A stretch of DNA of 35,655 nt from Candidatus Babeliales bacterium (lineage in GTDB: Bacteria; Babelota; Babeliae; Babelales; UASB340): assembly GCA_021735465.1 (NCBI GenBank), contig JAIPGX010000001.1, forward strand, positions 1 to 35,655, read 5' to 3'. Within the stretch, counting starts at the first letter, position 1; each line of letters begins with the position of its first letter. The position numbers and the translations under genes were made by a program. Positions 77 to 28,716 of this stretch are shown here, one piece after another. Below the pieces are notes generated by a model. The model made no database searches, was not told where the DNA came from, and saw only the letters and a program-made list of their open reading frames with translations.

Positions 77-221
77 AAAAACAACCCATCACAAAAATAA
101 AATAAAATAAAAAATATAAAAAAAATGATTAATATAATGGTTGTAATAAGAAATTTGATAAAAAATCAATAAATTTGTTTTTTAGAAGTAAATTAAATTT
201 TGTTATATATTTTTTGAAAAC

Positions 222-280
222 AAAAAATCGTTTATAATTTTGCCGCAAAAAATATGACAAAATTTATAAACGATTTTTTT
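222..280 (-). terminator. Long AT-rich inverted repeat; likely an intrinsic and possibly bidirectional terminator after the 304-702 gene
   Basis: Arms aaaaaatcgtttataattttg (222-242) and caaaatttataaacgattttttt (258-280) are complementary except for one extra base, with a 15-nt loop. On the minus strand the hairpin ends in GATTTTTTGTTTTC, about 25 nt after the stop at 304. Confidence 0.5.
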
Positions 281-303
281 TATTTTAAATTTTTTAATAT
301 ATT

Positions 304-702
304 TTAGTGCAAATATGCTGGGCCAGAACGAGGAATTACACTGTTTGGCCTGATAACATAATAAAAATCAGGTTTTCTTTTTTTACCTTTTTTTACTTTT
401 TTCTTAATAATACAATCTTTAATTTTTTTATTAGGATTTAATGATTTTGACACTTTAAAAAATTTTTTATCTGCATAAATATCTATTCTTGAATTTTTTG
501 GCAATTTTTCTTTATCTTTAATAACCTTGACTAAATCTGAAATGGTTTTTGTTGCATCAATTTTTACATCACCTCTTTGTTTTGTAAAAAGATTTTTATA
601 TCGAATAATTCTAGTATTATCTCTAGCGCTTATTTGATCTAAAAAACAAAAAAAACTTAAAAACAAAAAAGCTTTTGTTAATTTTGTTAAATTATTTCTC
701 AT
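304..702 (-). CDS. Small secreted Lys-rich hypothetical protein (132 aa) with a possible ubiquitin-like (beta-grasp) core
   Basis: ATG at 702 is preceded by AGGAG (rc of 708-712) 5 nt upstream. The N-terminus MRNNLTKLTKAFLFLSFFCFLDQISA|RD looks like a Sec signal peptide. The core TISDLVKVIKDKEKLPKNSRIDIYADKKF resembles ubiquitin residues 22-50. There is a basic tail KKKVKKGKKRKP, and a terminator hairpin lies downstream. Confidence 0.65.
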   Translation of the reverse strand: MRNNLTKLTKAFLFLSFFCFLDQISARDNTRIIRYKNLFTKQRGDVKIDATKTISDLVKVIKDKEKLPKNSRIDIYADKKFFKVSKSLNPNKKIKDCIIKKKVKKGKKRKPDFYYVIRPNSVIPRSGPAYLH

Positions 703-819: not shown

Positions 820-885
820 TTAACCCCAGTTTACACTGGGGCCTAACACACTATTAACTGCACGAAACGCGCAGCTAATTTGAAT
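820..885 (-). terminator. Two-hairpin module closing the ribosomal super-cluster (copy A of a repeated intergenic element)
   Basis: Read on the minus strand about 20 nt after the rplQ stop (907). Hairpin CTGCGCG-TTT-CGTGCAG (rc of 857-874, one G-U pair) is followed by CCCCAG-TGTAAA-CTGGGG (rc of 824-841) and then TTAATTATTTTTT. The 43 nt at 843-885 match 21780-21822 at 33/43 positions without gaps (hand count). Confidence 0.55.
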
Positions 886-26355: not shown

Positions 26356-28716
26356 TTATCCAGCTCTATAAACGGGTGGTCTTTTAAATTTTCTCGCAAA
26401 AGAACCCAAAGATTCAAGTCTAACAAATAAAGAGTAAGAACGCTCGCTTTTCCAATCTCCACACTCTCTATATTTTTTTTCTTCAAATCCAATTGAAGCT
26501 CCCCAACAATGTCCGTGATAGTCTAAACTAACATTATGCGCAAAATCTCTAAGCCCTTCAAAGGGCAAAAAATTAGAGCTTTTAGAAGAATAAAATTGAC
26601 CACTATAAGCAAATCTTAAACTTTTAGATAATGGAAAAGACGTTCTGAAAAAAACAAAATGTGGGATATCTGATAATAATTCTCTTTCTTGCCTTAAAGA
26701 CTCATTCTGATAAAGCGTACCTAGAGTAAAATTAAATTGTCCTAAATTAAAATTCGCACTTATTTGCGATTGCAACAATTTAAAATTCCGCCATTCATAT
26801 TCTTGACTAAAAAACAAACTTATTAAATCAGAATTAACTGATAATTCAAACTTAGGTGGTAAAAAATGTTTTTGACCGGGATAACGTCTTAATGGAAAAA
26901 TGTCAGATTTATTATAAAATTCAACTGCAGTAGAAATATTTAAATCTATATTCAAACTATTAAGATACCAATTATTTCTTAAGTAAAATTCTATTTGATT
27001 TTGTGGATAAATTCTATCCCAATTATCAGAATAAAACCAATTATTTTGATTCTCTTTTAATAAAAAATCCCATTTTAAACTCGGCTGAAAAAAATAATTA
27101 CAAAAAAAATTATTTTCTGTATCTTGCCACTCAATAGAACTTTCTGGAAGATCCCATTCTGCACCTGCACCCAAAAATAAGCGATATTTTTTTTTATTAT
27201 CAGAACTTATTTTAGTCCTGCTTCTGAGTTGTAACATTGGGTTAAAATATAATTTTAAAAATTGCTCTTTAAATCTTAAATTACTTTGTAAATTACCACT
27301 GTAAAAAAAACGTAAAGTATCAGCTTTTGCCAATGGGCGCAAAACAGTTTCTTTTACCAAGCTAGAATTTATATAAAAATTTTCCATTTTTTTTGATTTT
27401 GATAATATTTGATCAACAAAAAAATCATGTTTATAAGAAAATAAATTTTTTAATTTATAAAAAGCAGAATTATGTTCAAAATGAGGTAATAACAAAATCG
27501 TAACTTTATCTTCTACCTCTTTTTTCTTAGAAAAAGTTCCCCATTGATTAACCGTATCTTGTTCAAACGGCAACAAATTAAAAATTTCTCCCTCTTCTTT
27601 TCTATTTAAATTGCTAAATTGCCTAAAAGATGTTTCTTTGCAATCAAGCATAAGTGTATTAAAAGTTCTATTTCCTGTAGATCTAAAAATTAAAGAATTA
27701 TAAAAAGTATCATCAAGACCTTTTGTTATATCAAAAAATTGATAACCTATTCTTTTATCTGTTCCAAAATCTACTCTTGCTAAAGAATATAATTTTTTAT
27801 TGGGTAAAAATTTGATATCAAAAAAAGAAAAATCTTTACCACTAATCCAATATCTTTGATCAGTTTTTTTTACGATTTTATCCCCCTTTTTTACAAATGC
27901 ATTTTTTTCTATAGCATATTGCGCATTAACCAAAGTAAATTTTTCAGGATGTCTAACCCATCTAAAATCATTAGAAAAAGCAATACCTCTTTTAACTTTC
28001 CAATCTACCCCTAAAGTACTATCACATCTAGGCGCAATATACCAATAATAATCTTGTCTAATGCCAAAACCCAGTTCGTCATCATATGAAATTCGTGGCA
28101 ACAAAAAACCGGACTGTGATCTATTCTGAACAGGTAACACCATTGTTGGCAAAATAAAAAAAGGCAACTGACCAATTTTAAATATAAGACCATTAAATCT
28201 AATTAAATAATTATTATGTAGAACAGCTTGCCTTGCTATAATCGACCAATGAGGTATTGGCCCATCACAGGGCGTATAACAAATATCTTCCATCTTCCAC
28301 TGATTTTCTCCAAATTTTTCTGCTCTTGCTGATGTTATATAGCCTTGACTAACTTGCATTCTTACATTGTCTGCATAACCAGTTTTATTATCTAAATTTA
28401 AAAAAAACTTGTCAGCTAAAATCAAAAAATCACTATTCTCTATAACCACACTTGAACAAGTTTCATCTTTTTTTTTTGCAATCAAAATTTGTTTTTCTTT
28501 ATCGATTTCAACCTCATCTGCCCAGATATGCAACTTTTGATCAACCCAAACATCAACATTTTCATTCAAAATTAATTTGTTAAAATTTTCTATTTTTTGC
28601 TGAACGCTATTAACTTTTATAATTTTTACAGATTCGACAAAATCTCTTACAAAAGAATACGATTTTGATATAAAAAAAATAAAAAAGAATAAAACTAATA
28701 CTAAAAATTTATGCAT
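26356..28716 (-). CDS. lptD: LPS-assembly outer membrane protein LptD (OstA family)
   Basis: 786 aa with signal peptide MHKFLVLVLFFFIFFISKSYS and an OstA-like N-domain. YTPCDGPIPHWSIIARQAVLHNNY...LPFFILPTMVLPVQNRSQSGFLLPRISYDDELGFGI matches the LptD junction region. It has a long beta-barrel-like C-terminus. Confidence 0.85.
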   Translation of the reverse strand: MHKFLVLVLFFFIFFISKSYSFVRDFVESVKIIKVNSVQQKIENFNKLILNENVDVWVDQKLHIWADEVEIDKEKQILIAKKKDETCSSVVIENSDFLILADKFFLNLDNKTGYADNVRMQVSQGYITSARAEKFGENQWKMEDICYTPCDGPIPHWSIIARQAVLHNNYLIRFNGLIFKIGQLPFFILPTMVLPVQNRSQSGFLLPRISYDDELGFGIRQDYYWYIAPRCDSTLGVDWKVKRGIAFSNDFRWVRHPEKFTLVNAQYAIEKNAFVKKGDKIVKKTDQRYWISGKDFSFFDIKFLPNKKLYSLARVDFGTDKRIGYQFFDITKGLDDTFYNSLIFRSTGNRTFNTLMLDCKETSFRQFSNLNRKEEGEIFNLLPFEQDTVNQWGTFSKKKEVEDKVTILLLPHFEHNSAFYKLKNLFSYKHDFFVDQILSKSKKMENFYINSSLVKETVLRPLAKADTLRFFYSGNLQSNLRFKEQFLKLYFNPMLQLRSRTKISSDNKKKYRLFLGAGAEWDLPESSIEWQDTENNFFCNYFFQPSLKWDFLLKENQNNWFYSDNWDRIYPQNQIEFYLRNNWYLNSLNIDLNISTAVEFYNKSDIFPLRRYPGQKHFLPPKFELSVNSDLISLFFSQEYEWRNFKLLQSQISANFNLGQFNFTLGTLYQNESLRQERELLSDIPHFVFFRTSFPLSKSLRFAYSGQFYSSKSSNFLPFEGLRDFAHNVSLDYHGHCWGASIGFEEKKYRECGDWKSERSYSLFVRLESLGSFARKFKRPPVYRAG

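Follow-up and report, generated by a model that had tools for sequence, protein, structure and literature searches.

The window, as we call the whole stretch of 35,655 nt of Candidatus Babeliales DNA analysed here, carries on its minus strand (positions 304-702) a gene for a 132-aa protein that is likely exported and likely adopts a ubiquitin-like (UBL) fold. We propose that this protein is a host-directed, non-conjugatable ubiquitin mimic with a targeting polybasic loop, a reading to which we give about an even chance and in which we infer all steps past Sec export. The organism is an amoeba-associated, host-dependent member of the Babeliales (Dependentiae/TM6) whose genome contains secretin and F-box-like genes, in agreement with the host dependence presumed in the first-pass annotation of this DNA.

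The coding sequence runs from the ATG at 700-702 to the stop codon at 304-306 on the minus strand, according to the ORF list, and is backed by orthologues and dN/dS. A Shine-Dalgarno sequence, AGGAG, was read off the same strand at 708-712, with a spacer of 5 nt to the ATG. The start is unambiguous because only five open codons lie 5' of it. The 5' neighbours form the ribosomal block rpsM-rpsK-rpsD-rpoA-rplQ, from which the gene is split off by a GC-rich hairpin with a U-run after rplQ (822-843, minus strand), detected in a terminator scan. Directly after the stop codon follows a second, terminator-like hairpin, which is long and AT-rich and leads into a U-run (212-289, minus strand; inverted repeat I2); its predicted fold has −22.1 kcal/mol, corresponding to a z of −4.4 against shuffles. 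With these hairpins on either side, the gene appears to form its own unit. No sigma-70-like promoter on the minus strand of 703-822 passed a simple scan. The hairpin at 212-289 has an unusual length: its 30-nt arms are 83% complementary, with a small GC-containing tip, and it is much longer than the GC-rich one after rplQ. Next on the same strand begins a gene of the lactate/malate dehydrogenase type (ldh), of which the window holds the N-terminal part (76-1) and which is complete in relatives. The source genome is AT-rich and Lys-rich, and the GC content of the window's first kilobase is 23%. Elsewhere in the window, a 786-aa ORF (26356-28716, minus strand) between recR and an M24 aminopeptidase gene had no Pfam match at E ≤ 1e-5.

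A search for homologues in related Babeliales assemblies, which the first-pass annotation had suggested, was carried out with a word index and returned two orthologues with 74% and 68% identity, one of them annotated at NCBI, in a Candidatus Babeliales MAG, as a hypothetical protein. Both are located 3' of rplQ, in one genome with an ArsP permease gene in between. The frame is intact in all three assemblies and pairwise dN/dS values were 0.38-0.48; for the basic cluster and the β5 segment together, 0-3 non-synonymous versus 1-4 synonymous changes were counted among the orthologues. The CDS is a real gene under purifying selection, with the good ribosome binding site that the first-pass annotation had noted. 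More distant homologues did not turn up, since phmmer against 1.84 billion representatives retrieved only the protein's own cluster; the family thus consists of three members, all within one 50% cluster. Among the eight genera of the taxonomic family, the gene is restricted to the window's own genus and missing from the other seven. The interval between rplQ and ldh (703-906 and 77-303 of the window; loci L009, L010 and L012-L015) is an insertion site whose content varies. Nothing lies there in two genera, where ldh comes directly after rplQ; genus g6 has an unrelated signal-peptide protein of 271-282 aa at the site, on the opposite strand; in the window's genus the interval contains the UBL gene, joined by the ArsP permease gene in the sister genome. 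The gene is of recent origin or evolves fast, and it occupies a site where insertions vary; restriction to one genus, as seen here, is characteristic of accessory genes for host interaction.

At its N-terminus the protein has a predicted Sec signal peptide of the SPase I type, covering residues 1-26 (625-702, minus strand) with predicted cleavage at ISA|RD. The leader, MRNNLTKLTKAFLFLSFFCFLDQISA|RD, shows a basic n-region, a hydrophobic core of 11 residues and I-x-A at positions −3/−1. This n/h/c pattern is kept in both orthologues, with hydrophobic substitutions, which upholds the earlier assignment of a Sec-type leader. The segment also passed a crude signal-peptide heuristic and appeared as a separate N-terminal helix in both AlphaFold2 models described below. 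Two other readings of the leader were ruled out: a signal anchor, by a hydrophobic core of just 11 residues, and a lipoprotein signal, by F-F-C or F-I-C, which is not a lipobox. The predicted mature protein comprises 106 residues with a pI of 10.3 and, at 32 K/R versus 10 D/E, a net charge of +22.

We compared the protein with ubiquitin at the sequence level. Residues 53-81 align without gaps to ubiquitin 22-50 with a BLOSUM62 score of 44, and a recount confirmed exactly the 10 identities in 29 positions reported before. The Smith-Waterman alignment of the mature protein scored 51 and covered ubiquitin 15-64 with one gap of 7 residues. For 2000 composition-preserving shuffles the mean score was 25.7 ± 4.5 and only one shuffle reached 51; therefore the similarity is not merely compositional, as the first-pass annotation had cautioned that it could be. 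When Pfam was searched, the window protein matched Rad60-SLD (E 0.011), Crinkler-N (0.027), the USP7 UBL (0.029) and OTU1-UBXL (0.043), and the orthologue P0002 matched OTU1-UBXL (E 0.0044), Crinkler (0.008) and PF00240 (0.0094; 16.1 bits, below the gathering cut-off of 25.4). The top matches in all three orthologues came from four different UBL families, and none of the matches in the three reached a curated Pfam threshold. In the profile check proposed earlier, four UBL families thus matched the window protein below threshold, and PF00240, the ubiquitin family itself, was not detected in it.

All 60 matches listed in a PDB search with the three-sequence profile were ubiquitin or ubiquitin-derived. 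A single ubiquitin received only about 14 bits (E ~0.5) in this search, and the very low E-values of polyubiquitin entries are the sum of nine weak repeats. Comparing the family with ubiquitin by hhalign gave a P value of 2.2e-4 with 26% identity over 39 columns. Among the 1488 ORFs of the genome, the 132-aa ORF ranked first when ubiquitin was used as phmmer query, but with an E-value of 0.13, and NCBIfam returned only insignificant FtsL matches. By itself, the sequence evidence is suggestive of a ubiquitin relationship and inconclusive.

Structure prediction points to a UBL fold of the mature core, which we regard as very probable. The predicted ubiquitin-like beta-grasp domain extends over residues 30-119 (346-615, minus strand) and is indicated by AlphaFold2, Foldseek, the sub-threshold Pfam matches and hhalign. 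DSSP assigned the elements β1 (30-37), β2 (43-49), α1 (54-65), β3 (73-78), β4 (84-87), a 3-10 helix (94-97) and β5 (113-117), so that both models have the order ββ-α-ββ-3_10-β, the complete five-strand topology of ubiquitin. The first model, based on the alignment of the three orthologues, had a mean pLDDT of 74, a pTM of 0.61 and core values of 79-89, with β3 limited to 73-76; it rests on a very shallow alignment because the family has three members in one 50% cluster. For the second model, a 13-sequence alignment was used, consisting of the three family members and ten exported Babeliales UBLs. This yielded the same topology with β4 (84-87) resolved, core pLDDT values of 85-95 and 48 residues at or above 90. 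Foldseek searches of the PDB returned hardly anything but ubiquitin, NEDD8 and UBL domains (the TBK1 ULD, USP UBLs, FERM F1), with best E-values of 2e-4 to 5e-4 and TM-scores of 0.73-0.79 normalised to ubiquitin length, and giant-virus ubiquitins were found in BFVD. The ubiquitin-like core suspected in the first-pass annotation is thereby predicted by two models, and the structural comparison suggested there pointed the same way. AlphaFold may draw on the same weak ubiquitin similarity, so that the models lend strong support which is, however, not fully independent of the sequence evidence. We class the protein at the fold level only, as a predicted ubiquitin-like beta-grasp.

Candidate equivalents can be named for several ubiquitin positions, among them the Ile44-centred hydrophobic patch (Leu8, Ile44, Val70) that ubiquitin-binding domains recognise. 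By alignment, F39 (F/F/L in the orthologues) corresponds to Leu8 and I75 (I/I/M) to Ile44, and the position aligned to Lys48 is retained as well; V116 (V/V/A) lies opposite Val70 and R118 opposite Arg72 in the modelled β5 register only.

The most conspicuous departure from ubiquitin is the predicted polybasic loop KKKVKKGKKRKP, residues 100-111 (370-405, minus strand), which is indicated by both models, the Smith-Waterman alignment and the orthologues. The loop sits between the 3-10 helix and β5 in both models, in the place of the ubiquitin N60-S65 loop, which is thereby expanded from 6 residues to about 15. Smith-Waterman places K101 opposite Lys63, and the 3-10 helix IKDC is aligned to ubiquitin LSDY 56-59. 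The cluster had been described before as an NLS-like basic tail followed by a short Pro/aromatic segment; the cluster is indeed present, but in the models it forms an internal loop at the Lys63 position and not a tail, and the supposed Pro/aromatic segment becomes strand β5. KKKVKKGKKRKP shares first place in K/R density among the 12-mers of the genome's 849 ORFs of at least 100 aa and is nearly invariant in the orthologues, which argues that it is selected and not noise from AT bias. Within residues 100-110 of the modelled loop, the classical monopartite NLS core K-K/R-x-K/R occurs as KKRK, KKGK and KKVK; as a pattern only, this fits a classical NLS.

Strand β5, FYYVI (residues 113-117; 352-366, minus strand), was assigned by DSSP in both models and corresponds structurally to ubiquitin LHLVL; R118-P119 come next, where ubiquitin has RLRGG. 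The longer segment DFYYVIRP is the modelled counterpart of TLHLVLRL. A short sequence alignment did not give significant support for the β5 equivalence (p 0.35). Past β5 the window protein reads RPNSVIPRSGPAYLH, which includes the predicted disordered C-terminal tail NSVIPRSGPAYLH (307-345, minus strand), delimited by pLDDT values below 50 in both models and by the orthologue alignment. The protein ends in ...GPAYLH, and the terminal YLH is conserved in the orthologues. Gly-Gly, already reported as missing from the C-terminus, is absent from all three orthologues; therefore the protein cannot be conjugated in the manner of ubiquitin. We also considered an analogy to ubiquitin-ribosomal-protein fusions, prompted by matches to eS31 (residues 39-115) and by the site after the ribosomal operon. 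It was rejected because the models put β5 after the basic stretch, because the gene has its own terminators, because a permease gene separates it from rplQ in the sister genome, and because it is missing at this site in other genera.

Secreted ubiquitin homologues, BfUbb and BoUbb, are known from Bacteroides (PMC3352274, PMC5705921, PMC11467351). The 132-aa protein is similar to them in having an SPase I signal peptide, a single ubiquitin-fold domain (predicted here) and no C-terminal Gly-Gly. However, BfUbb is 63% identical to ubiquitin and clearly a recent transfer, whereas the 132-aa protein reaches about 26-34% over the aligned 39 columns or 29 residues and differs by a 7-residue insertion after β3 and the polybasic expansion of the Lys63 loop. 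Moreover, BfUbb belongs to a gut commensal and the 132-aa protein to an intracellular parasite of protists, and nothing corresponding to the periplasmic PPIase that BfUbb targets, or to its importer ButCD, is visible beside the 132-aa gene.

With eukaryotic ubiquitin and UBLs (PF00240, Rad60-SLD PF11976) the protein shares the predicted beta-grasp topology and the ubiquitin helix motif T-I-x-x-[LV]-K-x-x-I-x-D-K-E-x-[IL]-P, but it differs from them in scores below the gathering cut-offs, the signal peptide, the lack of Gly-Gly, two insertions and a net charge of +22. The N-terminal domain of Crinkler (CRN) proteins is a UBL module heading secreted, host-entering effectors. This header (PF20147) matched all three orthologues weakly and with the longest coverage (residues 45-106), at 15.4-17.4 bits against a cut-off of 24.6; unlike Crinklers, the 132-aa protein has no C-terminal effector domain and ends 13 residues past the UBL. 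Another likeness is offered by the F1 domain of the FERM module in talin and kindlin, a ubiquitin-like fold with an inserted basic loop that binds acidic membrane lipids. FERM and talin F1 structures were among the Foldseek matches, but there is no sequence relationship, and the analogy is confined to the way in which a UBL might make use of a basic loop.

Exported UBLs were also found elsewhere in the Dependentiae. At a threshold of E ≤ 1e-3, 23 of 261 Dependentiae genomes had a PF00240 match, compared with none among 14 control genomes. A signal-peptide-like N-terminus was present in 20 of the 27 matching ORFs by a crude rule and in about 22 by eye, and a terminal Gly-Gly in none of the 27. 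These ORFs range from near-canonical ubiquitin (...LHLVLR) with a leader before and a long C-terminal extension after it to proteins of 120-150 aa. Two tandem paralogues of the leader-bearing ubiquitin type occur at locus L017 (G232:C9, ORFs 230-1321 and 1372-2382), a further ORF of this type at L018 (1417-1992), and another signal-peptide UBL ORF of Babeliales at L020 (1483-1797). Altogether, the PF00240-positive, leader-bearing ORFs seem to make up a class of exported ubiquitin mimics that spans the phylum. PF00240 at this threshold matched neither the window's genome (G000) nor its congener (G004), and since these two are not among the 23, Pfam undercounts exported UBLs.

The 120-150-aa Babeliales proteins (alignment A2), whose likeness to ubiquitin can be recognised at ubiquitin positions 1-41 only, resemble the 132-aa protein in phylum, in the combination of leader and UBL, in the missing terminal Gly-Gly and in size. 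The 132-aa protein aligned with them in all secondary-structure elements, and the joint alignment revealed that the helix motif and a later motif, L-[DN]-x-N-x-x-I-K, are shared; hhalign of the 132-aa family against A2 gave a P value of 3.7e-4 over 66 columns, and it was the inclusion of A2 that lifted the core pLDDT to 85-95 in the second model. The A2 proteins differ in lacking the polybasic loop and in having a longer insert after β3. An HMM built from A2 did not retrieve the 132-aa protein from the genome's own ORFs, where it hit ExbD and other false positives, and a joint-profile search found no intermediates between the 132-aa protein and the A2 UBLs. Common descent of the two groups is plausible. 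A wider hypothesis would be that the phylum uses diverse Sec-exported, non-conjugatable ubiquitin mimics, with the 132-aa protein as a cryptic, Pfam-invisible member whose Lys63 loop has become a polybasic address tag; this we put forward tentatively, as a possibility that we rather doubt.

Dependentiae are without classical injection systems and carry Sec leaders on a large share of their proteins, and proteins with Sec signals have been proposed as their effector pool (PMC6561590). Chromulinavorax has signal peptides on 44% of its proteins, which were taken as effectors, possibly also shed in vesicles (PMC6561590), and a type II secretion system has been reported as core in TM6 (PMC4776705). 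Three secretin genes (PF00263) are present in the window's own genome, outside the window (G000 contigs C22, C74 and C34), and the secretins are possible outer-membrane exits for Sec-exported proteins. Many ubiquitin-system proteins were described in Babela, where genes for F-box and RING proteins and for deubiquitinases have made ubiquitin signalling a suspected target (PMC4378268). The window's own genome contains two neighbouring F-box-like ORFs, each about 230 aa long (G000 C68:1304-2010), one of which lies above the Pfam cut-off; F-box proteins are eukaryote-type adaptors of SCF ubiquitin ligases. Searches of this genome, which is 84% complete, returned no USP (PF00443) or Ulp1 (PF02902) gene. 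The literature that we searched on ubiquitin together with Dependentiae or Babela yielded no description of exported ubiquitin look-alikes. The first-pass annotation had also paired the gene with a eukaryote-like propeller protein encoded at the other end of the window, but nothing links it functionally to that protein 30 kb away.

If the proposed role is right, the protein would be exported by Sec and would then leave the cell either by a type II pathway that depends on a secretin or packed into outer-membrane vesicles, and would meet the eukaryotic host. There it might occupy ubiquitin- or UBL-binding proteins as a non-conjugatable mimic. The polybasic loop would serve as an address, directing the protein into the nucleus by way of importin, to acidic membranes or to nucleic acids.

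Other explanations were weighed against this proposal. That the ORF is spurious, a chance frame in an AT-rich intergenic region, could be suspected from its shortness, its Lys-richness, the missing family annotation and the 23% GC of its surroundings; with the frame intact in three assemblies, dN/dS below 1, the strong ribosome binding site, conserved synteny and terminator-like hairpins on both sides, this idea is effectively refuted. A real gene could still encode a small, fast-evolving, Lys-rich secreted protein without a ubiquitin fold, whose chance or compositional likeness to ubiquitin was amplified by AlphaFold. Every profile match was sub-threshold, the genome-wide phmmer E-value was 0.13, the alignment holds only three sequences and the C-terminal half lacks a significant sequence match, all of which would be expected in that case. 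We nevertheless consider it improbable, given the result of the shuffle control, the four UBL families heading the Pfam matches of all three orthologues, the agreement of two models on the five-strand ubiquitin topology with pLDDT values up to 95, and Foldseek matches that are essentially all UBLs.

Granting the fold, the protein might have its task in the bacterial envelope, staying in the periplasm or at the outer membrane and binding LPS, peptidoglycan or acidic phospholipids through its loop. In favour of this, a Sec leader by itself implies delivery no further than the periplasm, lpxC and YidC/SecY genes of this diderm organism lie within the same window, the mature protein is strongly cationic, and beta-grasp domains are found in bacterial periplasmic proteins too. 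We judge such a role unlikely, since the gene occurs in one genus and seven sister genera that have the same envelope lack it, a dN/dS of about 0.4 indicates weaker constraint than is usual in a housekeeping protein, and the nearest structures are ubiquitin proper and not bacterial beta-grasp families. An antibacterial weapon like BfUbb, i.e. a secreted ubiquitin homologue that cannot be conjugated and whose binding to a periplasmic target kills competing bacteria or inhibits them, would share the architecture of the B. fragilis protein (SPase I signal, ubiquitin fold, no Gly-Gly), and amoebae can harbour several competing symbionts (PMC4378268). Such a function appears quite improbable to us: the identity to ubiquitin is far below the value of BfUbb, neither a SusCD-type importer nor an immunity context adjoins the gene, the organism is intracellular, and the exported UBLs of the phylum include large multidomain forms that are more like host effectors.

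The host-directed mimic bears on the poorly understood question of how Dependentiae manipulate their protist hosts. If the wider hypothesis of a polybasic address tag is true, a bacterium without type III or type IV injection could place a ubiquitin decoy inside its host, and the tag on this decoy could be a nuclear import signal, an anchor to acidic lipids or a cell-penetrating element. The gene shows that divergence can take such mimics out of Pfam's sight, and the number of exported ones is therefore underestimated. The 106-residue protein is a compact object on which to ask if a UBL exported by Sec gets as far as the host and what effect a polybasic Lys63 loop has there.
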